Shown one piece after another: positions 10,470 through 64,000 of a stretch of 64,000 nucleotides of DNA. A program made the position numbers and the translations under genes. The DNA is from Pseudomonadota bacterium (GTDB lineage Bacteria; Pseudomonadota; Alphaproteobacteria; Rickettsiales; SXRF01), in assembly GCA_038043465.1 (NCBI GenBank), contig JBBTBX010000002.1, positions 110,944 to 174,943 of the forward strand, read 5' to 3'. Each line of letters starts with the position of its first letter. Within the stretch, counting starts at the first letter, position 1. The notes beneath the pieces are model-generated. The model worked only from the letters and a program-made list of their open reading frames with translations. It ran no database searches and was not told where the DNA came from.

Positions 10470-13231
<2,762 letters not shown>

Positions 13232-51085: not shown

Positions 51086-51113
51086 TTGACATGATAAAAA
51101 ACCTATATACTAT
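51086..51113 (+). promoter_or_regulatory. candidate sigma-70 promoter driving the nrd riboswitch leader
   Basis: TTGACA (51086-51091), 16 nt, TACTAT (51108-51113). Confidence 0.35.
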
Positions 51114-51119
51114 ATGTTG

Positions 51120-51405
51120 TGTTTTACGGTGCATTGCTGGCATCCAGCTCGCAATGCTTAAAAGGGAATCCGGTGTGAGGTTTTATTCAATTCCGGAGCT
51201 GCCCCCGCAACTGTAAGCGGCGAGTTTTTATTCATCACGCCACTGGAGCGCAAGCTCTGGGAAGGCAGGATAAAATACGGCGACCCGCGAGCCAGGAGAC
51301 CTGCCGGAAGACATATTGCTAACCATCGGACGGGGTGCGCCGAGTGAGGGCCGTGACAAGATAATTGTCTGCGCTTGTCACCGTCGCCCTTTCCAGGAAC
51401 GGAGG
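51120..51405 (+). promoter_or_regulatory. cobalamin (B12) riboswitch, leader of nrdA-nrdB
   Basis: Conserved core aaagggaatccggtg ... ccggagctgcccccgcaactgtaagcgg ... gccactgg ... gggaaggc ... and B12 box agccaggagacctgcc (about 51290-51305). A hairpin gtgacaag/cttgtcac (51353-51381) lies before the GGAGGG RBS. Confidence 0.85.
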
Positions 51406-51409
51406 GTTC

Positions 51410-53332
51410 ATGCTTGCTAATGCCTATGATTTTGACCGCAATGGTAATCTTATTACCTTTGATCCGACACGTAAAATAGTCCGCTTTCCAGAAACACAGG
51501 AAGAAAAAAAATTATACCGCAAAGCGGCAGAAGATCCGCAATTGCAAAAGGTATATCCGTCTTCAGTGAAGCTTGATTATTCGCGTGACGCCTTGCTTAC
51601 CGATTTTGGCAAAGCTACGCTTGATGACCGTTATTTGCTAGAAGGTGAAAACTATCAGCAGATGTTTGCCCGTGTTGCCTGCGCTTATGCTGATGATGCA
51701 GCGCATGCTCAGCGGCTTTATGATTATATTTCTCAGCTTTGGTTTATGCCATCCACCCCTATTCTCTCCAATGGCGGTGCAAAACGCGGTTTACCAATTT
51801 CCTGCTTCCTGAATACTGTAAGTGATTCACTGGACGGGATTGTTTCCACTTGGAATGAAAACGTGCTGCTTGCCTCCAATGGTGGTGGCATTGGTACTTA
51901 TTGGGGATTTGTGCGCGGTGTGGGCGAGCCTGTCGGGCGCGCCGGAAAAACTTCCGGTATCATTCCTTTTGTGCGTGTTATGGATTCACTGACATTGGCA
52001 ATTGCTCAGGGCAGTTTGCGTCGTGGTTCGGCGGCTGTTTATCTGGATATTCATCATCCAGAGATTGAAGAATTCCTTGAAATCCGCAAGCCCAGCGGTG
52101 ACTTTAACCGTAAAAGCCTGAACCTGCATCATGGCATTAACATTACTGATGAATTCATGGAAGCGGTACGGAGGGATGCAGAATTCGGTCTGCGTTCGCC
52201 AAAAACCAATAAAATTCTTAAGCATGTAAATGCCCGCCAGCTATTCCAGAAAATTCTGGAAATGCGCCTGCAAACTGGTGAGCCGTATTTGATTTATATT
52301 GATACTGCCAATAAATCCCTGCCCAAGCACCAGCGCGAACTTGGCTTAAAAGTACGCATGTCGAATTTATGCAGTGAAATCCTGCTGACAACCGGTCCTG
52401 ACCATCTTGGTAAAGACCGCACTGCTGTTTGCTGCCTTAGTTCGCTCAATGCCGAGACCTGGGACGAATGGCATGATAATCCGCGCATAGTAGAAGATGT
52501 TCTACGCTTTCTTGATAATGTATTGCAGGAATTTATTGATACTGCACCTGATGGCATGGCGCGTGCCAAATACGCCGCTATGCGTGAACGCTCGGTTGGA
52601 CTGGGGTTGATGGGCTTTCATTCTTTCCTGCAACAGAAAGGCGTGCCGTTTGAAAGCGCGATGGCAAAATCATGGAACATGAAAATGTTCCGACAGATCC
52701 GCCGCGCCGCTGACGCAGCTTCTGTTGCCTTGGCTGAGGAACGTGGTTCTTGTCCGGACGCTGAGGAACGCGGCATAAAAGCACGCTTCAGTCACAAGCT
52801 TGCAATTGCTCCCACCGCCAGCATCAGTATTATCTGTGGCGGAACTTCCGCCTGCATAGAGCCGATCCCTGCCAATATTTATAATCACAAAACCCTTTCC
52901 GGAAACTTTGCAGTAAAGAATATTTACCTCGAAAAACTTCTGGAAGAAAAAGGCATTAATAGTGAATCCACCTGGCAATCTATTGTCGAGCATGAAGGAT
53001 CGGTGCAGCATTTGCCACAACTTTCGCAGGATGAAAAAGATACGTTCAAAACTGCTTTTGAAATTGACCAGCGTTGGATTGTCGAATTTGCTGGTGACCG
53101 TGCGCCTTATGTCTGTCAGGGGCAGTCTATCAATTTGTTTCTGCCAGCCGACGCTGATAAATGGGATTTATTCATGCTGCATTGGACGGCTTGGGAAAAA
53201 GGTGTGAAGTCGCTTTATTACTGCCGTTCAAAATCTATCCAGCGCGCTGAATATGCTGGCGGCGGTGAAAAAGAAATCAAAACCCTGAAAACTGAAAAAA
53301 CCGATTATGAGGAGTGTTTGGCATGTCAGTAA
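51410..53332 (+). CDS. nrdA: class I ribonucleotide reductase alpha subunit (no ATP-cone evident)
   Basis: ATG 51410 after GGAGGG. ...LPISCFLN..., SNLCSEI and C-terminal ...EECLACQ redox tail. The track start 51365 lies inside the riboswitch. Confidence 0.92.
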   Translation: MLANAYDFDRNGNLITFDPTRKIVRFPETQEEKKLYRKAAEDPQLQKVYPSSVKLDYSRDALLTDFGKATLDDRYLLEGENYQQMFARVACAYADDAAHAQRLYDYISQLWFMPSTPILSNGGAKRGLPISCFLNTVSDSLDGIVSTWNENVLLASNGGGIGTYWGFVRGVGEPVGRAGKTSGIIPFVRVMDSLTLAIAQGSLRRGSAAVYLDIHHPEIEEFLEIRKPSGDFNRKSLNLHHGINITDEFMEAVRRDAEFGLRSPKTNKILKHVNARQLFQKILEMRLQTGEPYLIYIDTANKSLPKHQRELGLKVRMSNLCSEILLTTGPDHLGKDRTAVCCLSSLNAETWDEWHDNPRIVEDVLRFLDNVLQEFIDTAPDGMARAKYAAMRERSVGLGLMGFHSFLQQKGVPFESAMAKSWNMKMFRQIRRAADAASVALAEERGSCPDAEERGIKARFSHKLAIAPTASISIICGGTSACIEPIPANIYNHKTLSGNFAVKNIYLEKLLEEKGINSESTWQSIVEHEGSVQHLPQLSQDEKDTFKTAFEIDQRWIVEFAGDRAPYVCQGQSINLFLPADADKWDLFMLHWTAWEKGVKSLYYCRSKSIQRAEYAGGGEKEIKTLKTEKTDYEECLACQ

Positions 53333-54414
53333 TTTACGCAAAACAAAATCCTCTCGAGCTGCAGGGCAAAGGCAAAATCGGTCTGCTTGAAACTTCCGGC
53401 AGTTATAATGTTGACCGCTATCCGTGGGCTTATCAGGCATGGAAACGCCAGCAGCAGATTCACTGGATGGGTGAAGAAGTGCCACTTGGTGAAGACATCA
53501 AGGATTGGAACGGAAAAGCACTCAGTGAAAGTGAACGCAATTTGCTTACGCAGATTTTCCGTTTCTTTACGCAGTCGGATGTAGAAGTCAGCGATAATTA
53601 TTTCAAGCGTTATATTCCCATTTTCCAGCCACTCGAAATCCAGATGATGATGGCGGCATTTACCAACATGGAAACGGTGCATATCGACGCTTACGCGTTG
53701 TTACTGAAAACACTCGGTATGCCCAACACTGAGTTCAAAGCATTCCATTCTTACGCTTCCATGCGTGCAAAAACCGATTATATGCACAGCTTCGGCACTT
53801 CCACCTGCTCCGATGTTGCACGTACGCTGGCTATGTTTGGCGCATTCACCGAGGGTATGGCTCTTTTTGCCAGTTTCGCGATGCTGATGAATTTCCCACG
53901 CTTCAATAAAATGAAAGGCATGGGGCAAATTGTTAGCTGGTCAGTACGCGATGAATCATTGCACTGCGAGAGCATTATCCGTCTTTATCATGAATGGGCG
54001 CAGGAGACTGGCGCGGTGACCAAAGCAGTTGCCGATGATATTATAGATGTTGGTAAAACTATGGTGGGACTCGAAGATAAATTCATTGAGCTGGCTTTTG
54101 AATTTGGTGAAGTGCAAGGGATGAAGCCGGATGATATAAAAAACTATGTTCGTTACATTGCCGACTGGCGACTTACCCAACTCAAACTCACCCCGGTTTA
54201 TGGCTATTTCACCGGAACATCTGGCGAGTATAAACAAACCAGAGAACATCCTCTGCCGTGGCTTTCCGCCATGCTTAATGGGGTTGAACATGCCAATTTC
54301 TTTGAAGCCCGCTCCACCGAATATTCCAAAGCAGCAACGCGCGGCGATTGGCACGGCGAAGGCGGGGTATGGGCAGCTTTTGATAATATGAAAAAACAAC
54401 TGGAGGTTGCGTAA
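53323..54414 (+). CDS. nrdB: class I ribonucleotide reductase beta subunit
   Basis: Di-metal/tyrosyl motifs FFTQSDVEV, NMETVHIDAY (E-x2-H-x3-Y), FTEGMALFASF and VRDESLHCE. Its ATG overlaps the nrdA stop (ATGTCAGTAA). Confidence 0.92.
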   Translation: MSVIYAKQNPLELQGKGKIGLLETSGSYNVDRYPWAYQAWKRQQQIHWMGEEVPLGEDIKDWNGKALSESERNLLTQIFRFFTQSDVEVSDNYFKRYIPIFQPLEIQMMMAAFTNMETVHIDAYALLLKTLGMPNTEFKAFHSYASMRAKTDYMHSFGTSTCSDVARTLAMFGAFTEGMALFASFAMLMNFPRFNKMKGMGQIVSWSVRDESLHCESIIRLYHEWAQETGAVTKAVADDIIDVGKTMVGLEDKFIELAFEFGEVQGMKPDDIKNYVRYIADWRLTQLKLTPVYGYFTGTSGEYKQTREHPLPWLSAMLNGVEHANFFEARSTEYSKAATRGDWHGEGGVWAAFDNMKKQLEVA

Positions 54415-54782
54415 TGTACGAAAAAGAACTGGTTATCAAAGTAGTTGCTATGCCCTGCGACACTAACCCCGATGGCGATATGTTCGGCGGATGGATTTTA
54501 AGTCAGATGGATTTGGCGGCATATCTCCATGCTCGCAAGCTGGCGCATCACAAGATCGTTACCGTTGCCATCGACAATATCGTATTTCATCGCCCGGTTC
54601 TGGTTGGTGATTGCCTGATTTGTTATGCCACAATCGAAAAAGTCGGGCGCACCAGCATTGCGGTAAAAATTGACGCGATGGTCGAGCGCAAAGAAGGTCA
54701 CAAACAGGAAGAGGTGACTGAAGGTCGCTTTACGTTCGTTGCCATTGGCGAAGATAGAAAGCCAGTGCCAGTTAAAGTATAA
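54414..54782 (+). CDS. YciA-like acyl-CoA thioesterase (hotdog fold)
   Basis: AMPCDTNPDGDMFGGWILSQMDLAA. The start overlaps the nrdB stop (TAATG). Confidence 0.8.
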   Translation: MYEKELVIKVVAMPCDTNPDGDMFGGWILSQMDLAAYLHARKLAHHKIVTVAIDNIVFHRPVLVGDCLICYATIEKVGRTSIAVKIDAMVERKEGHKQEEVTEGRFTFVAIGEDRKPVPVKV

Positions 54783-55337
54783 CTACGCCCTGAGCATCCT
54801 GTTATTATATGGTGGCATAAGTTGTAGCGTTGAACCGATGTGGTTTAAGGCAAATAAACCTATTAGCGCGCCAACATTAAGAACAAAAATTCGTGACTGA
54901 ATGGCAAGCGTATAATTTTCTACACCACCAAGCACCAGTGAGGCAATATAACCGCTTGCTTCATAAGCCACAAAAGCTACCATAAAAGCTAAAGTGATGC
55001 TCAGTACAGGACTTGAATTGCTAAAACGTGCTACTATCCAGCGTGCAGATAGCAGTGAAATAAGCGCGACCGCGCCAAGTGCCGCTCCCCATGCGAAGGT
55101 ATTTGCATCCCACGGGTAATCCATGAACAGGAAGCCAGTGAGTTGATTGGCGAGCCATACACCAAGCATAAGGAGTACTGCATCACGGCGAGGTAATGTA
55201 AGCGCAGTTGCAGCAGCAAAAGCGGCAAACGGAACGGCGCATTCAAACCAGAAGGTAAAGGCAACGCTGGAAACAATAAGCAGCGTTAGCCAGAGGGGAC
55301 GACGCCAGTCTTGAGCCGGTGAAAGTGATGATTGCAT
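54783..55337 (-). CDS. hypothetical about 6-TM membrane protein, distal gene of the B12-riboswitch operon (candidate small-molecule/B12 transporter)
   Basis: 184 aa with six hydrophobic helices. AAGGAG RBS 5 nt upstream of ATG 55337. Single Cys (FWFECAVPF). Confidence 0.6.
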   Translation of the reverse strand: MQSSLSPAQDWRRPLWLTLLIVSSVAFTFWFECAVPFAAFAAATALTLPRRDAVLLMLGVWLANQLTGFLFMDYPWDANTFAWGAALGAVALISLLSARWIVARFSNSSPVLSITLAFMVAFVAYEASGYIASLVLGGVENYTLAIQSRIFVLNVGALIGLFALNHIGSTLQLMPPYNNRMLRA

Positions 55338-55367
55338 AGTAACTCCTTTAGGTTGATGATTATAGTT

Positions 55368-55898
55368 TTAACGTGGCAAACGAGTGACTAAACGCTTAGT
55401 GTTTGCCTGCACTGCAGATGCCCATTTCTTGGATTCCCGCGTAGGTTTATCACTAACGGCATCTTTATCCGATGTTTGCGCCTCTTTTTCGGCAATATTA
55501 GCTTTTCGTTGCAGTTTTCCAGCACCAAGCTGCCATTCAGTAACAACTTTTTTGCTTTCCAGATAGTTGGAAACACCCATGCACGCTGCACCAAAAGCCG
55601 TCATGACAACAGCAATACGGTTGAATTGCTTATTGCCCATAACTGCTTCAGTGCCTTTAGCCGATTTGAAAAGCGGTTTCCCCTGTTCGGCAGCACTCAG
55701 GATTTTTGATGACAGCACGCTTAGAACGCCGATATTGGTCGCACCCGCTATGGCAAACAGCCATGATGATATGGCTGAATAAGTCGTATGATCACGCATG
55801 AATTTTTTTTCAGATATAGTTGCCGCTTCCTCATGGGCAGGGGCAGAAGATGTTTGTGGTTTCTTTTCTGAAGTTTTTTGTTCTATTACTTCGCTCAT
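55368..55898 (-). CDS. hypothetical membrane protein (two central TM helices, polar charged termini)
   Basis: 176 aa. The start lies 4 nt after the stop of the upstream ORF, which suggests coupling. No family recognised. Confidence 0.5.
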   Translation of the reverse strand: MSEVIEQKTSEKKPQTSSAPAHEEAATISEKKFMRDHTTYSAISSWLFAIAGATNIGVLSVLSSKILSAAEQGKPLFKSAKGTEAVMGNKQFNRIAVVMTAFGAACMGVSNYLESKKVVTEWQLGAGKLQRKANIAEKEAQTSDKDAVSDKPTRESKKWASAVQANTKRLVTRLPR

Positions 55899-55902
55899 AT
55901 GC

Positions 55903-56403
55903 TTACTCTTTACTTGAGAAATTATTTAAAGATTTCTGTATATTATTAGTATTGGCGTTAGAAGCAACCACCGTTTCTTCCATTTGCAAAGGCATGACAT
56001 ATGCGTTCTGGAAATCCATGCGGTAATCAGTCATGGCATAATAACAAATCAGATTTCCCGCTTCATCACCGGACTTGTCAGTAACAGAAGCGGTGAACAA
56101 CAGCCCACGCTGCAGATTCCCATCTCCTTTCCAGAATAGCTTATCATAAGTATCCAGCGATAATTGCTCATTGAAAGACAGGGAGTCATTCAAGGCATAT
56201 TTAGACCCGTAACGCGAATTAAATGCTTCGATGCAGGATTTTTTTTGCGCGCTATCAAAATTGGTAAGCGCGGCGGCTTTATCCATTTCAAATAATTGTT
56301 GCCGCAAATTGCTTTGATTGCCCGCCCAGGATACCGAGCTGATACATATAATACATAAAATTGTGCAAATAATTACTTGAAGATTTAAATTAAAACCAGT
56401 CAT
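55903..56403 (-). CDS. hypothetical exported protein, first gene after the B12 riboswitch
   Basis: ATG 56403 is preceded by GGAG (8-nt spacing). Signal peptide MTGFNLNLQVIICTILCIICISSVSWA. The track start is GTG 56412. Confidence 0.5.
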   Translation of the reverse strand: MTGFNLNLQVIICTILCIICISSVSWAGNQSNLRQQLFEMDKAAALTNFDSAQKKSCIEAFNSRYGSKYALNDSLSFNEQLSLDTYDKLFWKGDGNLQRGLLFTASVTDKSGDEAGNLICYYAMTDYRMDFQNAYVMPLQMEETVVASNANTNNIQKSLNNFSSKE

Positions 56404-56449
56404 AAAATACACTCCATAAACAGTTATACATACGCTATTGCCAAATGGC

Positions 56450-56715
56450 TTTAGCGCGTGTCACTGCATAAAGAGTTGGGCTCACCCCAATCATCACTCC
56501 TAGAAAACACCCCGTTTCCTGAGTATGCGTGACACCTGATAGTAGGTCTCCTGACTTGCGGGTCATCACCTTCGGCTGTCTTCCCAAGTATCGCTACTCA
56601 GTGACGGTGTATCATTGCCTAAGGCTTGCCGCTTACAGTTGCGGGGGCAGTTCCGGATTACACAAATAATTGTGGCACCAGATTCCCTATTAATCCCTTG
56701 CGGGAACTATCAAGG
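56450..56715 (-). promoter_or_regulatory. cobalamin (B12) riboswitch (minus strand)
   Basis: Reverse complement reads ...aatagggaatctggtgcc...ccggaactgcccccgcaactgtaagcgg...gtcactgag...gggaagac...B12 box agtcaggagacctact (56541-56556). It shares the ctgcccccgcaactgtaagcgg core with the nrd riboswitch. Confidence 0.85.
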
Positions 56716-56718
56716 AGT

Positions 56719-56746
56719 AACATAACGCAAAATTGGATAAGGTCAA
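56719..56746 (-). promoter_or_regulatory. candidate sigma-70 promoter for the minus-strand riboswitch operon
   Basis: On the minus strand: TTGACC (56746-56741), 16 nt, TATGTT (56724-56719), just upstream of the riboswitch 5' end. Confidence 0.4.
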
Positions 56747-57021: not shown

Positions 57022-60000
57022 CTACAACAAGAAATCGCTCGCTGCCAGGGTATGCAGTCCGGTTAGTTCGATTTGCATATCGAGCGTGCCGTTACTATCA
57101 GCGTCTATGCCGATAATAGTGTTGCCGGAAACTTGTGCATAATTAACCCCAGCTACTGAACCACCCAAAGCACCTGTGCCTTTAAAAGTGAAGCTTCCGG
57201 CGAAATCAGTAAGGTCGATTTTATCAGTGCCTTTAACGAAATCAGTGATAATGTCACGTACACCTGTCGCTTTTCCAGAATCAGTTATTGCGCTGAATTT
57301 AAACACATCAGCACCAGCACCGCCAGTCATGGTGTCTTTTCCAGTCCCGCCAGTTATAATATTGGCAAGGGTATTTCCCAGCAATGTATCGTTGTAAGTA
57401 GAACCAGTTAGATTTTCGATATTAGTGAGTATATCGCCGGCAGCAAAGCCACCAGATTGCGCGGTGGTAACAGCCAGATTTACATTCACTGCCGCTGTGG
57501 AGTTAGCGTATGAAACTGTATCAATCCCTGCCCCACCATTGATGTTATTAGCAACTGAGCTGCCTGTAAATGTGTCGTTCAAAGGTGAACCAATAATGTT
57601 TTCAATGCTGATTAGCGTATCGTCCTGAGCATGACCGCCAGATTGAGCGGTGGTGATTCCGAGATTTACATTAACTGCGGCAGTAGAAGCTGCGTAGGAC
57701 ACAGTATCAGTTCCCACCCCTCCATCAAGTATATCAACTCCGGTGCTTCCGGAAATTGTATCATTACCATCAAGGGCATAAATTACTTCATTACCGGCGA
57801 TTCCAGCCAGGATGTTATCCGCTGTGGTTCCGGAGATTATTTTAGCGACATTAATTTTGGCAGTGGCAGTGTTTGAAATAATACCGTTAGAATCTTTAAC
57901 GCTATAGGTAAAACTATCCATACCGTTATATCCTGCGGTCGGGGTATAAAGGATTGTGCCATCGGTAGCATTAATGCTCACTGTGCCGTGTGCAGGAGTG
58001 GTCAAACCAGTTATACTGCTAGCAAAGAGAACTGTCTCAACATCATTATCATTAGCCAGAACATTAAGTTTAGTCGCGGTGTTTTCGACAACCACAAAGC
58101 TGTCGTTAGTCGCCACAGGAATATCGTTTACCGGTGTCACCGTAGCATCAACAATCAGAGTGCTGGTTGCGCCGAATGAATCGGTTAGTTTTATGGTGAT
58201 TTTATCAATCCCGTTGTAATTAGGCTTTGGAGTATAAGTTATCATATTGCCGGCAAAGCTGATACTGGCATTAGGTGAGGAGACGGAATTGATGGTAAAA
58301 GCATTGCCGTCCGGATCATAAAAATAGCTATTCACATCAAAAGTTGCTGGAGTATCTTCAGTAAATGTAATGGTGCTGCCTGTCTTAAATTTAGGAGAGT
58401 CATTAATTAGAGTTACATTTATTGTAGCTGTAGCAATGTTGGAAACCAACCCCTGCGAATCAGTAACTGTATATTTAAAACTATCCTGTCCGTAGAAATC
58501 AGCTTTTGGTGTGTATAACACCTTGCCATCACTTTGGATTGCAACTGTACCATTTGTCGGCTGGGTAGTTATTTTAATATTAGCTGCCGGGAAGAAACCA
58601 TCTTCCACATCCGAATCATTGCTCAGAATAGTTATAAGGGCGGTGCTATCTTCACTGATTGTGATGACATCATTAGTTGCCACAGGCGCATCATTTACCG
58701 AAATAATCGTGGCATTTACCGTTTTGGTATCAAAACCACCATTGCCATCAGAAATCGTGTAGGTGAATGAATCAGTGCCGAAATAGTTTTTGGAAGGAGT
58801 ATAAAATAACTTACCACCGGAAATGCTGGTAGAGCCATGCGCCGCACCGCCAGCAGAATATATAGTCATGGTATTATTTTCTATATCAGTCGCACCAACC
58901 AGAGCCAGCACTTCAACTGGTGTATCCTCATTGGTTGTTATAGTTTTGTTCAGTCCCACCGGAGCATCATTAACCGGTGCCACATTAACACTGATAGTTT
59001 TGCTCTGGCTTACACCGGCTGCGTCTTTATAGGAAATAGTAAAACTATCAGTGCCAAAATAATTAGCTTTTGAGGTGTAAATTATATCACCGCTGGTATT
59101 TACAGAAGCTGTGCCATTCACGGCAGCCCCTGAGATAATAATATTTTTATAATCAGCACTACCATCATTTTTATTAAGCAGTTTTATTTTTGTGGCTACA
59201 TCCTCATTAACTACCACATAACCATTCACAGAATAAACCGTGGATACAGGTTCAATAGAAGCCGCATTGGTCAGGTTGAATTTTGTTCCATCAGCAAATT
59301 GGATATATTCCATGCGGTTATTGTCGGTAGCGAAAAATTTGCTGACTAATATAGAATCGGTTTTCCCCTGAGTTACTATACGTAGATCATCACCAACCCG
59401 AATCATTGCCATAGTAGAAGATAAAATACCAGTACCCAGCACTATTTTATCGCCAACACCACCGGATTCGGTAAGAATATCACTACCATAACCAGCGTCA
59501 AAATTATAGGTATCAACTCCACCGCCACCTCTTAAAATATCATTACCGATGCCGCCATTGATAATATCAATATCTTCACTGCCATAGATATAGTCATTAC
59601 CCGCAGCTCCACTCAGATTGTCGGCAAAAGGTGTTCCGATTATTATATCATCTGCCGCACTGCCAGTCACAGTAATTGCCTTGGTGATATCAATGATTCT
59701 GCCATCGGCAAATTTAAGGGTTTCTACCCGGTAATTGGAGTTAGTGAAGAAATTATTGATAGTTACTCGGTCATTGGCACTGTAGCTTATAATTAGATTA
59801 GTTCCGGATGCCTCCATCAATATATCCTGCGGTACTATCCCAGCCCCAAATACTATCTGGTCAGCACCCGTATAATCAGAAAGCGTATCCTGTCCATCAC
59901 CAATGTTGAAGATATAGACATCGTTACCTGTGCTTCCATCAATAATATCATTGCCTTTGCCAGCGTTAATAGTGTCATTACCGCTATAGCCATAGATGGT

Positions 60001-63000
60001 GTCGTTGCCAATATTGCCAGTTAAATTATCATTAAAACTAGCCCCCACCAGAGTTTCACCGGTAGTTTTAGTGCCAAGTAAAGTAAGCCCACCTGATAAA
60101 TCTAATATGCTGCCATCAGCGAATTTAAGGCTTTCGATTTTATAGTTGCTTCCAGAATTACTAAAAAAGCTTTTTAGTGTTATCTGGTCGCCATTCGTTC
60201 CAACTTTAATAATCAGTGACTGGCTATTCGCATAATCGGAAATAAGCTGAATGCCAGCCTTGGCAATCCCCGTGCCAAACACTATCTGGTCGATTCCGGT
60301 GTAATCAGTAATCGTGTCCTGCCCGTCACCGACATTGAAGATATAAGTATCATTGCCGCTATAGAAACTGCTGTTATCAATAATATCATTACCTTTACCG
60401 CCGGTGATAATATCATTGCCTTCATTACCGTAAATTGTGTCAGCTCCTATATTTCCGGTCAGGGTATCATTGGAATATATACCGTACAAGGTTTCGCCTG
60501 TGGTTTTTGTCGCGCTTAAAGTTAAACCAGTTGTTAAATCCAATACACTGCCATCAGCGAATTTAAGGCTTTCGATTTTATAGTTGCTTCCAGAATTACT
60601 AAAAAAGCTTTTTAGTGTTATCTGGTCGCCATTCGTTCCCACTTTAATAATCAGTGACTGGTTATTAGCGTAATCCGAAATGAGCTGAATATTGGCTTTT
60701 GTTATCCCCGCGCCAAAAACTATCTGGTCAGTTCCGGTGTAATCAGTAATCGTGTCCTGCCCATCGCCGACATTGAAGATATAAGTATCGTTGCCGCTAT
60801 AGAAACTGCTGTTATCAATAATATCGTTGCCTTTTCCACCATTTATCGTGTCATTGCCTTCATTACCGTAAATGGTATCCGCCCCGATATTCCCGGTCAA
60901 CACGTCATTAGAGTATATACCGTACAAGGTTTCGCCTGTGGTTTTTGTCGCGCTTAAAGTTAAACCAGTTGTTAAATCCAATACACTGCCATCAGCGAAT
61001 TTAAGGCTTTCGATTTTATAGTTACTTCCAGAATTATTAAAAAAGCTTTTTAGAGTTATCTGATCGCCATTAGTACCAACCTTGATAATCAGCGACTGGC
61101 TATTAGTATAATCGGAAATGAGCTTGATAGATGCCTTGGTTATCCCCGCCCCGAACACAATCTGGTCAGTTCCGGTGTAATCATAAATAGTGTCTTGCCC
61201 ATCACCAATATTGAATATATAACTATCATTGCCTGAATAATAGGTGCTACCACCATCGATAATATCATTACCCTTACCACCAGTGATAGTGTCATTACCT
61301 TCATTGCCGTAAATTGTGTCATTACCGATATTGCCAGTCAGCACATCATTAGAGTATATCCCAAACAAAGTTTCGCCTGTGGTTTTTGTACCAACCAGCG
61401 TTAAACCAGTGGTTAAATCCAGCACACTGCCATCAGCAAATTTAAGAGTTTCGATTTTGTAATTACTGTCTTGCGTATAAAAGAAATTCTTTAAACTTAT
61501 CTGGTCGCCATTCGTGCCAATTTTTACAATCAGCGACTGGTTATTAGCATAATCAGAAATCAGTTGAATATTGGCCTTGGTAATCCCCGCACCGAACACA
61601 ATCTGGTCAGTTCCAGTGTAATCATAAATAGTATCCTGCCCGTCACCGACATTAAAGATATAGGTATCGTTACCCGAATAGAAACCACTTCCGCCATCGA
61701 TAACATCATTACCCTTACCGCCAGTGATAGTGTCATCGCCAGTACCACCAACGATATTATCATTCCCACCCAGCCCCTTTATCACATCATTTTTTGATGT
61801 TCCAGTTAAGGTTTCCGCCAAATCCGTGCCAGTCATGAGTGAGCCGATATTCGCAAGGCTGAGGCTGCTGCCATCGACAAACTCCAGCGTTTCCACGCGA
61901 TTGGTAGTAGCAACATAAAAATTCTTGATGCCTATCTTATCGCCAGCCGTACCAATATTAATCACCAAATCATTTCCCACCTGCGCGTATGACACATCCG
62001 CCGCGCTGATGCCGTCACCCAGCAAAATCTTATCCATCCCCGCATTATCATCAATCGAATCCTGCCCATCGCCACGGCTAAAACGATAAATATCATTACC
62101 AGCGTCGCCTTTCAGAATATCATTGCCCTTACCGCCCACAAAATAATCATTCCCAGCGAAGCCATAGAGTTCGTCGTTAGCGGCATCGCCATGCAGTATG
62201 TCATTTTTGGTTGTGCCGTAGAGTATGTCGATCTCCGATGTGCCATAATTAAGCCTGCCATCGAAGGTGAAGCCGGAAGGAATTGCCAGGGTTGCAATGC
62301 TGGCTGTCAGCGAATCAAGCTTACTGTCGAACGCAGCATCATTAAACTGGTCCTTGTTGAGTTTCAGGATATTTTCGGCGTAATAGATATAATTAGTGAA
62401 GCTGTCTGAGTTTATGGCTTTGGCTTTTATCGCAGCGATAGCTTCATCGAGCGTGCTGCCGATGGTGAGTTTGTCGCTGGCGAAGTCGTAACTGGCATTA
62501 GGGAATACATCATGCAGCACCGATTGCACCAGAAACTTATTCAGGAAATAATTATAGAACATGTCCCATGCCTGCTGCGCCAGCGGAACACCAGTTTGAG
62601 TGCGGTTGAAGAAATCACCACCGGTAATCTTCTCCATGAAGGCTGTCTTTTTGGCAGAGAATGGTATATAACCAAAGGCGGAATCATAAACATCAGCACT
62701 GGTGACATTCTGGACACCCGCCCAGCGGAAGAGGAACGCCTCGAACTTGTCGCCAAGCAGATAGAAGTCTTTAGGCTGGGTGGCTGCAAGGTCTTTCGCC
62801 ATCGCAAGTAAAGTCGGGTCGAGAGTCATTGCTGCCTGCCATGAATAGAGGCTGCCGTAACCACGGGAATAAGGAAGCAGTAAACTATCAACGCTAAGTT
62901 TGAATGTAGAAGGCAGGGTAAAGTCAGGATTGGTAAACACAGTCGGAGTTTCGAAGCCGAAATTAATCTCATGGATGTTTCTTACGTTGCCATTGGTAAA

Positions 63001-64000
63001 TTTAACAGTGGAAACGGCAGTCTGCATGTTTCCGGAGATTGTTTGTAAATTAGCATATTTAATAAGAGATATTTCTGTCACACCGTTAGCCGTCAGTGTG
63101 GTTAATTCTCCGGTGTCAACTGTTCCATCCGCATCTTTATCATTCCACAGTTTTAATAACGAGAATTGAGTATCGGTAGCATTAATTAAATTGTCTTTAT
63201 TGGAATCATATTTACTCAGTTCTGCAAAACCGTTGACGCTAGGATTGCCGAACATTTCATTAACATTATCAATATTGCCGTTGGAGTTTTTATCAACTAC
63301 TAAGAAAACATCGTCACCATTCGCCTTAGTCCATCCGGTATTCTCTTTCGTTCCATTACCATCGAGATCGAAGAGCGCGGTTGCAGTTTGCCACGAATTA
63401 AGAGCAATACCATTGCCATTTAGGTCAATAATGAGTGGATCGATTAAACTTGCCGCACCCGCCTTAGCGAAGACCTCATTCGCCTGCTTAATCAAAAGAT
63501 CAGCATTCGCAGCGTTTTTTTCTGCATTATCGTCAATCCCGTCACCATCCAAATCCACAAGCTTCGGTATCGTTATCCCCATGAACGTATAATCAGCCTT
63601 CGGATCGTAAGTCGATTTGAAGAAGTTTTTGATGATTGCGGCAGAATCAGAGTCGGAAGCGGCAACCAGATCATTACCCTGCTTCTGGAAAATGACATCA
63701 CCAAGCTGATAAAGATCCCTACCGACAGCTTTGGCAGTGCCAGTAACGGTGGTATTATTAAAGACGATTTTATCTCCATTTTCTGCATCGGTGATGGTGT
63801 CTATTCCTTCGCCACCAGCAGATAAAAATATGTCATTCCCTGCCCCACCAGTCAGCGTGTCCTTCCCACCACCGCCAATGATAATATCATTACCGCCACC
63901 ACCAGAGATAGTGCTGATTCCTTCGCCACCAATCAGCAAATCATTTCCACCTGAGCCATTAATTAAATTATCACCCTTACCATCAACAAACAGATTGACT
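57022..64000 (-). CDS. giant RTX / cadherin-like calcium-binding adhesin, type I secretion substrate (5' end beyond right edge)
   Basis: More than 2320 aa inside the window. The frame is still open at 64000 (I translated 63940-63999: ...VNLFVDGKGDNLINGSGGND...). Many GGxGxD nonapeptides, tandem modules, five VNDAP-bounded Ig/cadherin-like modules, and a C-terminus ...GGAGADVFKF...DFVKGTDKIDLTDF...ASDFLL typical of T1SS substrates. Confidence 0.9.
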   Translation of the reverse strand, partial: VNLFVDGKGDNLINGSGGNDLLIGGEGISTISGGGGNDIIIGGGGKDTLTGGAGNDIFLSAGGEGIDTITDAENGDKIVFNNTTVTGTAKAVGRDLYQLGDVIFQKQGNDLVAASDSDSAAIIKNFFKSTYDPKADYTFMGITIPKLVDLDGDGIDDNAEKNAANADLLIKQANEVFAKAGAASLIDPLIIDLNGNGIALNSWQTATALFDLDGNGTKENTGWTKANGDDVFLVVDKNSNGNIDNVNEMFGNPSVNGFAELSKYDSNKDNLINATDTQFSLLKLWNDKDADGTVDTGELTTLTANGVTEISLIKYANLQTISGNMQTAVSTVKFTNGNVRNIHEINFGFETPTVFTNPDFTLPSTFKLSVDSLLLPYSRGYGSLYSWQAAMTLDPTLLAMAKDLAATQPKDFYLLGDKFEAFLFRWAGVQNVTSADVYDSAFGYIPFSAKKTAFMEKITGGDFFNRTQTGVPLAQQAWDMFYNYFLNKFLVQSVLHDVFPNASYDFASDKLTIGSTLDEAIAAIKAKAINSDSFTNYIYYAENILKLNKDQFNDAAFDSKLDSLTASIATLAIPSGFTFDGRLNYGTSEIDILYGTTKNDILHGDAANDELYGFAGNDYFVGGKGNDILKGDAGNDIYRFSRGDGQDSIDDNAGMDKILLGDGISAADVSYAQVGNDLVINIGTAGDKIGIKNFYVATTNRVETLEFVDGSSLSLANIGSLMTGTDLAETLTGTSKNDVIKGLGGNDNIVGGTGDDTITGGKGNDVIDGGSGFYSGNDTYIFNVGDGQDTIYDYTGTDQIVFGAGITKANIQLISDYANNQSLIVKIGTNGDQISLKNFFYTQDSNYKIETLKFADGSVLDLTTGLTLVGTKTTGETLFGIYSNDVLTGNIGNDTIYGNEGNDTITGGKGNDIIDGGSTYYSGNDSYIFNIGDGQDTIYDYTGTDQIVFGAGITKASIKLISDYTNSQSLIIKVGTNGDQITLKSFFNNSGSNYKIESLKFADGSVLDLTTGLTLSATKTTGETLYGIYSNDVLTGNIGADTIYGNEGNDTINGGKGNDIIDNSSFYSGNDTYIFNVGDGQDTITDYTGTDQIVFGAGITKANIQLISDYANNQSLIIKVGTNGDQITLKSFFSNSGSNYKIESLKFADGSVLDLTTGLTLSATKTTGETLYGIYSNDTLTGNIGADTIYGNEGNDIITGGKGNDIIDNSSFYSGNDTYIFNVGDGQDTITDYTGIDQIVFGTGIAKAGIQLISDYANSQSLIIKVGTNGDQITLKSFFSNSGSNYKIESLKFADGSILDLSGGLTLLGTKTTGETLVGASFNDNLTGNIGNDTIYGYSGNDTINAGKGNDIIDGSTGNDVYIFNIGDGQDTLSDYTGADQIVFGAGIVPQDILMEASGTNLIISYSANDRVTINNFFTNSNYRVETLKFADGRIIDITKAITVTGSAADDIIIGTPFADNLSGAAGNDYIYGSEDIDIINGGIGNDILRGGGGVDTYNFDAGYGSDILTESGGVGDKIVLGTGILSSTMAMIRVGDDLRIVTQGKTDSILVSKFFATDNNRMEYIQFADGTKFNLTNAASIEPVSTVYSVNGYVVVNEDVATKIKLLNKNDGSADYKNIIISGAAVNGTASVNTSGDIIYTSKANYFGTDSFTISYKDAAGVSQSKTISVNVAPVNDAPVGLNKTITTNEDTPVEVLALVGATDIENNTMTIYSAGGAAHGSTSISGGKLFYTPSKNYFGTDSFTYTISDGNGGFDTKTVNATIISVNDAPVATNDVITISEDSTALITILSNDSDVEDGFFPAANIKITTQPTNGTVAIQSDGKVLYTPKADFYGQDSFKYTVTDSQGLVSNIATATINVTLINDSPKFKTGSTITFTEDTPATFDVNSYFYDPDGNAFTINSVSSPNASISFAGNMITYTPKPNYNGIDKITIKLTDSFGATSTLIVDATVTPVNDIPVATNDSFVVVENTATKLNVLANDNDVETVLFASSITGLTTPAHGTVSINATDGTILYTPTAGYNGMDSFTYSVKDSNGIISNTATAKINVAKIISGTTADNILAGIAGNEVIYALDGNDTISGSTGVDILDGGVGTDTVSYAASTAAVNVNLGITTAQSGGHAQDDTLISIENIIGSPLNDTFTGSSVANNINGGAGIDTVSYANSTAAVNVNLAVTTAQSGGFAAGDILTNIENLTGSTYNDTLLGNTLANIITGGTGKDTMTGGAGADVFKFSAITDSGKATGVRDIITDFVKGTDKIDLTDFAGSFTFKGTGALGGSVAGVNYAQVSGNTIIGIDADSNGTLDMQIELTGLHTLAASDFLL
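57850..59260 (-). repeat. five tandem about 95-100-aa cadherin/Ig-like coding modules
   Basis: Each module is bounded by VNDAPV / INDSPK / VNDIPV and contains ...YTP..(N/D)(Y/F)(F/Y/N)G.DSF.Y... Confidence 0.75.
59290..62300 (-). repeat. tandem coding repeats (RTX nonapeptides + about 100-aa beta module), period 411-441 bp, about 7 copies
   Basis: Anchor word tgccatc(a/g)(g/a)c recurs at 59700, 60111, 60549, 60987, 61428 and 61869. The copies starting at 60111 and 60549 share about 90 identical consecutive nt at one end and about 75 at the other. Confidence 0.85.

Follow-up and report, generated by a model that had tools for sequence, protein, structure and literature searches.

A cobalamin riboswitch-led operon of unannotated protein families as a candidate corrinoid acquisition system in a 'Rickettsiales'-labelled bacterium

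A riboswitch and three small genes

In this study, we analyzed a stretch of 64,000 nucleotides (nt), hereafter the window, which comprises positions 110,944 to 174,943 of contig JBBTBX010000002.1 (assembly GCA_038043465.1) from a bacterium classified within the Rickettsiales. On the minus strand of the window, a cobalamin (B12) riboswitch precedes three small genes, named here p166, p176, and p184 after the lengths of their products in amino acids (aa; Table 1). To judge from its sequence, the RNA upstream of these genes is a genuine cobalamin riboswitch. The element that an earlier note on this DNA had placed at 56450-56715 is real, with slightly shifted coordinates: the Rfam covariance model RF00174 matches at 56524-56726 with 118.2 bits (gathering score 31.5, E = 5e-29), and the alignment spans the entire model (positions 1-189 of 189), including the B12 box AGUCAGGAGACCUACU and the core CUGCCCCCGCAACUGUAAGCGG. 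The same alignment contains a GCCACUG-type J6/3, CUGCCCCCGCAACUGUAA, and AGUCAGGAGACCU, all of which form invariant columns when the aptamer is aligned with 10 other riboswitches. The aptamer lies 120 nt 5' of the p166 start codon on the same strand and is 100% identical in L001, the same locus in a metagenome-assembled genome (MAG) labelled 'Rickettsiales bacterium'. The sigma-70-like promoter proposed in the earlier note is present and well placed, at a position fitting a transcription start a few nucleotides before P1 of the aptamer. However, 9-of-12 matches to such a promoter are no commoner in this region than in shuffled sequence (3 found versus 4.8 expected), and hence the candidate is weak evidence.

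Downstream of the aptamer, both the minimum free energy (MFE) and the centroid structures pair ACUCU (56472-56476) with GGAGU (56411-56415). This pairing buries the GGAG ribosome-binding site of p166 (56412-56415) in a 66-nt hairpin, with a fold z-score of -3.2 relative to shuffled sequences. No strong terminator was found between the aptamer and the p166 start, the sole terminator-like site being a weak 5-bp stem at 56490-56476. These predicted folds suggest that the leader most likely acts as a translational OFF switch.

The three tightly packed open reading frames (ORFs), as well as the AAGGAG before p184, agree with the earlier description. For p166 we use the ATG, as the start given in the ORF list is a GTG (169 aa) that overlaps the GGAG ribosome-binding site. 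The gap between p176 and p184 is 30 nt and contains the AAGGAG. Together with the 4 nt between p166 and p176 and the lack of a convincing intergenic terminator among the three genes, this spacing fits an operon, and p166, p176, and p184 would form a single transcription unit with the promoter and the riboswitch. All three have conserved homologues and thus are real genes. These homologues are called 'hypothetical' wherever a source gives names. Pfam and NCBIfam scans of the three proteins gave nothing at E <= 1 beyond noise (AveC_like at E = 0.54; MalG at 17 bits, where the cutoff is 261), and no FecCD, Peripla_BP_2, or ABC_tran domain. The earlier statement that none of the three is a recognized B12 protein therefore stands. 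Its prediction of an exported p166, a p176 with two membrane helices, and a six-helix p184 is likewise supported by a hydropathy scan and, for p184, by the six helices of an AlphaFold2 model.

Table 1. Coordinates of the features discussed (window positions unless a locus is named)
Feature	Position	Strand	Remarks
Promoter candidate, sigma-70-like (TTGACC-16-TATGTT)	56719-56746	-	motif scan; weak evidence
Cobalamin riboswitch aptamer (RF00174)	56524-56726	-	Rfam covariance model, cmscan
Putative expression platform, 66-nt hairpin	56411-56476	-	MFE and centroid folds; 3' arm pairs with the p166 ribosome-binding site
p166 gene	55903-56403	-	166 aa from ATG; GGAG 8 nt upstream
p176 gene	55368-55898	-	176 aa; start 4 nt past the p166 stop codon
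p184 gene	54783-55337	-	184 aa; AAGGAG 6 nt upstream
Second cobalamin riboswitch	51110-51322	+	Rfam, 144.9 bits
nrdA	51365-53332	+	
nrdB	53314-54414	+	
YciA-like acyl-CoA thioesterase	54414-54782	+	
DUF7676 gene, locus L009	5373-5963		
DUF7676 gene, locus L027	5248-5904		
DUF7676 gene, locus L088	6335-6937		
DUF7676 gene, locus L089	5986-6930		

The p166/p176 pair

The p166 protein starts with a signal-peptide-like hydrophobic segment (residues 1-29 in the hydropathy scan). It has only 11 homologues, which share the invariant residues C57 and C120 as well as a WKG motif. AlphaFold2 predicts an alpha+beta core, with a pLDDT of 72.9 overall and of ~80-93 over most of residues 31-140. A Foldseek search with this model against the PDB returned no significant match; the weak ones include many NTF2/SnoaL/VirB8-like folds. 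On the other hand, p176 has 76 homologues, none annotated. Its hydropathy profile indicates membrane segments at residues 43-64 and 95-113, and its core (residues 28-131) is highly conserved, the first membrane segment and the SNYLESKKVVTEWQLGAGKLQRK segment being nearly invariant in 69 sequences.

When 79 loci with distant p184 homologues were searched by tblastn, none contained a match to p166 or p176, which indicates that the p184 family does not generally have these two proteins as partners. The whole arrangement of riboswitch, p166, p176, and p184 recurs in two close relatives of the window (L082 and L083; riboswitches found by nhmmer), with protein identities of 68-83%. In three contigs from similar MAGs (L085, L086, and L087), a p166/p176-like pair stands directly behind its own cobalamin riboswitch, and in a fourth (L084) p176 does so alone. 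The riboswitches of these four loci score 106-122 bits with Rfam, and no p184 gene was found within the 6 kb fetched on each side of these modules. Since p166/p176 and p184 are riboswitch-linked separately, the window operon joins two modules. The earlier note had described p166 and p176 as new accessory components of the p184 system; they are indeed unannotated, but they form an autonomous riboswitch-linked pair that also occurs without an adjacent p184. So far, the pair is restricted to 'Rickettsiales'-labelled MAGs.

Transfer RNA genes lie upstream of three of these modules. Those of L084 (5471-5554) and L087 (5008-5081) are ~100 nt away, and that of L086 (4206-4278) is ~770 nt away and on the other strand. 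The latter locus also carries a phage-type integrase gene (10559-12208) ~4 kb downstream. The riboswitch-p166/p176 module may move as an islet. In addition, the window and L001 are ~95% identical overall in a mosaic fashion: the riboswitch, p176, and p184 are 100% identical, and p166 is the most divergent part (55966-56365; 82.5-90% nucleotide and 87% protein identity). This divergence could reflect recombination, diversifying selection on an exported protein, or a chimeric assembly.

The p184 family and its genomic context

A word-indexed search recovered 286 homologues of p184, and an exhaustive profile search 894 clusters (50% identity) at E <= 1e-3, 666 of them at E <= 1e-10. The best 150 clusters listed are nearly all single-domain proteins of ~190 aa. 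RefSeq labels the members from Methylocella tundrae (WP_197732049.1) and Gloeocapsopsis dulcis as 'hypothetical protein', and we found no literature describing this family or DUF7676, its frequent neighbor. Several residues are nearly invariant across 237 diverse members. Cys33, the only cysteine of p184, is kept in 98% of them, P36 and N64 in 99%, Q65, G68, and Y74 in 100%, E126 in 90%, and N154 in 95%; W16, W61, P75, and W83 are also near-invariant. The single cysteine at about residue 33 had been mentioned in the earlier note and set aside, yet it is among the best-conserved residues of the family. Altogether, the family can be recognized by a length of ~190 aa, six helices, and the signature A-C-A-x-P ... 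W-L-A-N-Q-x-x-G ... L-x-Y-P ... W-G ... Y-E ... N. The p184 protein of the window has every signature residue except the first, with Glu32 at a position where 87% of members have Ala.

The AlphaFold2 model of p184, built from a 27-sequence alignment, is a confident six-helix bundle (pLDDT 86.9, pTM 0.81), in line with the multiple membrane segments of the hydropathy scan. Arginine-rich stretches occur at the N-terminus and at residues 48-52 and 99-105, and acidic loops at residues 31-36, 72-77, and 137-143. By the positive-inside rule, both termini would be cytoplasmic, and C33 and Y74 would lie in periplasmic loops. The conserved polar residues would all fall in the periplasmic half, which suggests a periplasm-facing pocket. 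An hhalign comparison of the N- and C-terminal halves was negative for an internal 3+3 helix repeat (probability 0.2%). The protein shows no detectable kinship to known transporter families. A PDB sequence search with the 27-member profile returned 0 matches at E <= 10, including against BtuM (6FFV) and S-component chains, and Foldseek found no PDB match to the model at E <= 1e-3. There is no confident fold match to an unrelated family either; such a match would, according to the earlier note, have refuted its proposal. The top Foldseek match, CcmC (7f02_C; E = 0.07, TM-score 0.29), was judged not meaningful.

We sampled the genomic context of the family by scanning one genome per GTDB species, which yielded 80 loci, and counted riboswitches with Rfam scans and an nhmmer model built from the Rfam matches. 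The loci come from Alphaproteobacteria (Stellaceae, Beijerinckiaceae, Methylocystis, Methylosinus, Methylocapsa, Sphingomonas, Rhodobacteraceae), Gammaproteobacteria, Planctomycetota, Verrucomicrobiota, Rokubacteria/Methylomirabilota, and an Alcaligenaceae MAG. In 45 of the 80, the p184 homologue is preceded at a distance of 161-3610 nt by a same-strand cobalamin riboswitch, the shortest distance being that of L037, where the riboswitch precedes the homologue itself. Ten more loci contain a riboswitch elsewhere. Of the 25 riboswitch-free loci, 11 have <3.5 kb of upstream sequence. A genome contains a few riboswitches, so that one or two would be expected by chance in the ~0.8 Mb covered. Association with B12 riboswitches in other genomes, a check raised in the earlier note, is therefore found for the p184 family as well as for p166/p176 (L084-L087).

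Two layouts dominate: a riboswitch followed by a TonB-dependent receptor, DUF7676, and the p184 homologue, or the same series without DUF7676. For nine of 10 co-operonic receptors, the BtuB models TIGR01779/NF007926 give the best match, which is full-length, with TIGR01779 scores of 204-311 bits that are under the equivalog cutoff. A plasmid of M. tundrae carries the riboswitch (123.6 bits), the receptor, DUF7676, and the p184 homologue in this order. In most loci, no other inner-membrane transporter accompanies the BtuB-like receptor. Genes for corrinoid salvage are also found nearby, including CbiZ (L027 and L046), CobT, CobU, and CobS, the latter immediately upstream of the homologue in L038. 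Moreover, a PduO-type adenosyltransferase adjoins the family in at least seven loci. The DUF7676 protein (PF24724) is cytoplasmic, has ~200 aa, and carries the conserved motifs DGYLT.AFG..HFH.CIG and NPF; its gene lies between those of the receptor and the p184 homologue in about half of the loci. In the cyanobacterial locus L089, DUF7676 is fused to a [2Fe-2S] thioredoxin-like domain. We regard DUF7676 as a candidate cytoplasmic acceptor or reductase of corrinoid (or metal).

The closest analogue of p184 is BtuM of Thiobacillus denitrificans (PDB 6FFV; PMC6072759). Both are six-helix inner-membrane proteins of ~20-22 kDa from Gram-negative bacteria without a recognizable ATPase partner, and both families occur near btuB and behind B12 riboswitches, with a near-invariant cysteine that faces, or in p184 is predicted to face, the periplasm. 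However, no sequence relationship between them is detectable, and the best S-component fold match to p184 is weak and unconvincing (5edl; TM-score 0.41, root-mean-square deviation 6.7, E = 0.78), 6FFV being absent among the 50 Foldseek matches listed. The cysteines are not equivalent, that of p184 (residue 33) lying in loop 1 and the essential cysteine of BtuM, its cobalt ligand (Cys80), in loop 3. The conserved sets also differ (WLANQ, YP, and YE in the p184 family; H28, D67, Y85, and R153 in BtuM), and neither DUF7676 nor p166/p176 is part of the BtuM description in PMC6072759. An assignment of p184 to BtuM or the S-components of energy-coupling factor (ECF) transporters, as put forward in the earlier note, is thus not supported.

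Several other contexts of the family are worth recording. In two Rhodobacteraceae MAGs (L065 3324-6546 and L052 59-3024), the p184 homologue follows a Rieske ring-hydroxylating oxygenase and its FAD/NAD/[2Fe-2S] reductase. The genes of L065 stand behind a cobalamin riboswitch (93.9 bits), which looks like a B12-repressed oxygenase and is possibly a B12-independent alternative pathway. Fused DUF1289-DUF6925 proteins, of which the DUF1289 part is Cys-rich, are encoded near the p184 homologue where DUF7676 is absent (L014 5049-5936; L040 2414-3478); a scan of neighboring proteins (n=111) found DUF6925 in 6 and DUF1289 in 5. Finally, in L081 (5522-7867), whose p184 is 63% identical, the place of p166 and p176 ahead of p184 is taken by two other small secreted proteins of 166 and 158 aa with hydrophobic N-termini and by a dienelactone-hydrolase protein with a cytochrome-c'-like C-terminus (CSSCH). 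Its neighborhood includes metE as well as an ATP-cone nrdA that has a riboswitch of its own.

Corrinoid uptake and competing explanations

With modest confidence, we favor the view that the three genes form a B12-repressed corrinoid acquisition system of unannotated families, with p184 as its inner-membrane permease. The broader proposal of the earlier note, that new proteins make up a module for the uptake or processing of cobalamin, has good support from comparative genomics. Under B12 scarcity, the leader would permit translation of the operon, and plentiful adenosylcobalamin (AdoCbl) would shut it through the riboswitch, most likely by sequestering the p166 ribosome-binding site. In the periplasm, p166, a candidate ligand binder of alpha+beta fold, may capture or present corrinoid together with p176 in the inner membrane. 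The predicted pocket of p184 (Cys33, Asn64-Gln65, Tyr74-Pro75, Trp83, Glu126, and Asn154) would accept the corrinoid arriving from the outer membrane and pass it to the cytoplasm, with Cys33 perhaps binding cobalt transiently in the manner of BtuM Cys80. Elsewhere, the p184 family would in most bacteria be co-transcribed with a BtuB-like receptor and the cytoplasmic His/Cys protein DUF7676, two partners that the p166/p176 pair would replace in the operon of the 'Rickettsiales'-labelled lineage.

The regulatory logic and the general function of such a system are already known; it is the protein families that are new. In Escherichia coli, an AdoCbl riboswitch also represses uptake genes, and in most p184 relatives a BtuB-like TonB-dependent receptor comes right after the riboswitch, as in the BtuB pathway. 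In contrast with BtuFCD, the window operon has no inner-membrane step of the ATP-binding cassette (ABC) type, and it also lacks the receptor. The role proposed for p166 has a parallel in the Bacteroides proteins BtuG, BtuH, and DUF4465, which are reported to be lineage-specific exported corrinoid-capture proteins encoded in riboswitch-controlled B12 uptake operons (PMC13398666, PMC12751083). Unlike these proteins, p166 consists of a small domain of ~110 residues, possibly NTF2-like, without a Pfam or NCBIfam match, and prediction places it in the periplasm as a soluble protein, not at the surface as a lipoprotein.

A number of observations weigh against this interpretation. The lack of an outer-membrane receptor in the window operon leaves the route of B12 across the outer membrane unexplained, and the p166 model is of moderate confidence only. 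Fourteen of the 80 loci have no riboswitch despite at least 3.5 kb of upstream sequence. In an Alcaligenaceae MAG (L006 4952-8210), genes for DUF7676 and the p184 homologue are followed by those for a BtuF-like protein of the periplasm and then a FecCD permease. No riboswitch was detected there. In L060, an ABC ATPase lies downstream; the family is thus not always a substitute for an ABC importer. In L063, the gene for the cobalt transporter CbtA stands immediately upstream of the p184 homologue. The main misfit is L089, on a plasmid of Gloeocapsopsis dulcis (NZ_CP119970.1, 1899-14369). There, a BtuB-like receptor, DUF7676, and a p184 homologue occur without a cobalamin riboswitch among two COG0523 GTPases, DUF1636, folE, hisI, thrS, and cysS. 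This set is reminiscent of a metal-limitation regulon, in particular one for zinc limitation (Zur).

The last two loci bear on a different explanation, which we consider unlikely: that p184 is an inner-membrane permease for cobalt, or for another metal or metallophore, serving B12 biosynthesis, with DUF7676 as cytoplasmic metallochaperone and the riboswitch reporting, as with CbtAB or CbiMNQO, that B12 is sufficient. Cobalt transporters are also found under cobalamin riboswitches (PMC2667541), and CbtAB, CbiMN(QO), and the predicted CbtC resemble the window genes in being small multi-helix membrane proteins behind such elements. CbiN, a two-helix partner of a larger membrane subunit, offers a loose parallel to p176 beside p184. 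The conserved Cys, Asn, Gln, and Glu of p184 and the HFHxC motif of DUF7676 could bind a metal ion, and the CobW-like GTPases, DUF1636, and paralogues typical of zinc limitation around the riboswitch-free trio of L089 point in the same direction. However, 9 of 10 co-operonic receptors match BtuB models best, and the neighbors include CbiZ, which acts on cobinamide, and nucleotide-loop genes; the context is one of BtuB and salvage genes, not of the cob/cbi genes for ring synthesis. The p184 protein lacks a His-rich motif and any match to Pfam cobalt/nickel transporter models, and the CbtA next to it in L063 would be redundant if p184 itself carried cobalt. In addition, classical Rickettsiales do not use cobalt or B12 at all (PMC2667541), which makes de novo B12 synthesis in this lineage seem unlikely and counts against a metal permease.

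As for individual cobalt transporters, we rejected CbtAB and CbiMN as identities of the three proteins, which match none of the cobalt-transporter models in Pfam or NCBIfam at E <= 1. The CbtA model (PF09490) does detect the neighbor in L063, so that a match of this kind would have been seen. CbtD, CbtE, and CbtG are clearly different proteins according to their supplement sequences. The predicted alphaproteobacterial cobalt transporter CbtC, assigned to Rhodobacter, Roseobacter, S. meliloti, and others, is a conceivable identity of the p184 family and as such a point in favor of the metal explanation. If the p184 family were CbtC, a name would already exist for it, as a bare prediction.

It is quite improbable, in our judgment, that p184 is instead a membrane protein for corrinoid processing or hand-over, whether it performs a thiol-dependent dealkylation or decyanation, reduces the corrinoid, or passes it between BtuB and either DUF7676 or another importer. 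The BtuF-like and FecCD genes that share its operon in L006, and the ABC ATPase of L060, would suit such a role. The near-invariant cysteine would do so too, as BtuM Cys80 catalyzes decyanation (PMC6072759), and so would the frequent coupling to DUF7676 or to the Cys-rich DUF1289-DUF6925 and the [2Fe-2S]-like fusion of L089. Against it, most loci have no other inner-membrane transporter beside the BtuB-like receptor, and the six-helix bundle, with its predicted polar pocket toward the periplasm, is in keeping with a small permease. Moreover, the two explanations overlap, given that BtuM both processes and transports its substrate. Finally, the idea that the three genes have nothing to do with B12 supply and are needed only in B12 scarcity (for example, for an envelope function tied to B12-independent metabolism), or that the riboswitch controls p166 only, can draw on the lack of recognizable domains and on the control of B12-independent isozymes such as the adjacent nrdAB by riboswitches, but is very hard to reconcile with two unrelated families (p184, across several phyla, and p166/p176) each riboswitch-linked at separate loci, with p184 embedded in operons of BtuB and salvage genes, and with the 4-nt and 30-nt gene spacing that argues for co-transcription.

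Elsewhere in the window, a second cobalamin riboswitch precedes nrdA and nrdB on the plus strand, followed by a gene for a YciA-like acyl-CoA thioesterase. This unit converges on p184 with abutting stop codons, and the neighborhood recurs in L082, L083, and L085. Cells that draw on B12 whenever they can obtain it typically have a cobalamin riboswitch on nrdAB. The presence of this element shows that the organism adjusts its metabolism to B12 availability, and implies a B12-dependent ribonucleotide reductase elsewhere in the genome. Immediately upstream of the riboswitch promoter of the three-gene operon, a 2305-aa protein (57022-63939, minus strand) with RTX-like GG-x-G-x-D and cadherin/VCBS-like repeats is probably a giant secreted adhesin, with no obvious link to the B12 operon. 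A survey of large ORFs in the rest of the window revealed no further B12 genes, only housekeeping ones (dnaA, recF, gyrB, acnA, dnaK, metG, rpsA, and aroA-cmk).

Returning to corrinoid acquisition, about half of the bacteria that depend on B12 have no BtuCDF importer, and how B12 crosses the inner membrane is not known for most of these (PMC6072759). The p184 family, widespread, nameless in Pfam, NCBIfam, and RefSeq, and linked to BtuB and riboswitches, is a testable candidate for this missing step, and the same context evidence attaches a function to DUF7676. A bolder and more tentative proposal, possible rather than probable, is that p184 represents a new class of solitary inner-membrane B12 permease, unrelated to BtuM, ECF, or ABC systems and with a fold new to the PDB, in which the loop-1 cysteine serves as cobalt ligand. 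With DUF7676 as cytoplasmic acceptor, such a class would supply the missing step in many Alphaproteobacteria, Verrucomicrobiota, Planctomycetota, and others that contain BtuB. Separately, and as part of the same tentative proposal, p166/p176 would be a new periplasmic B12 capture device of environmental Rickettsiales-like bacteria. The cultured methanotrophs that carry the family (Methylosinus, Methylocystis, and Methylocella) make its genetics feasible, and the near-invariant cysteine allows a clear mechanistic test and would give thiol-corrinoid chemistry in uptake a second, independent example. For its part, the p166/p176 pair suggests that uncultured Rickettsiales-like bacteria scavenge B12 by means of components without a known counterpart, which is relevant for predicting B12 auxotrophy and cross-feeding from metagenomes.

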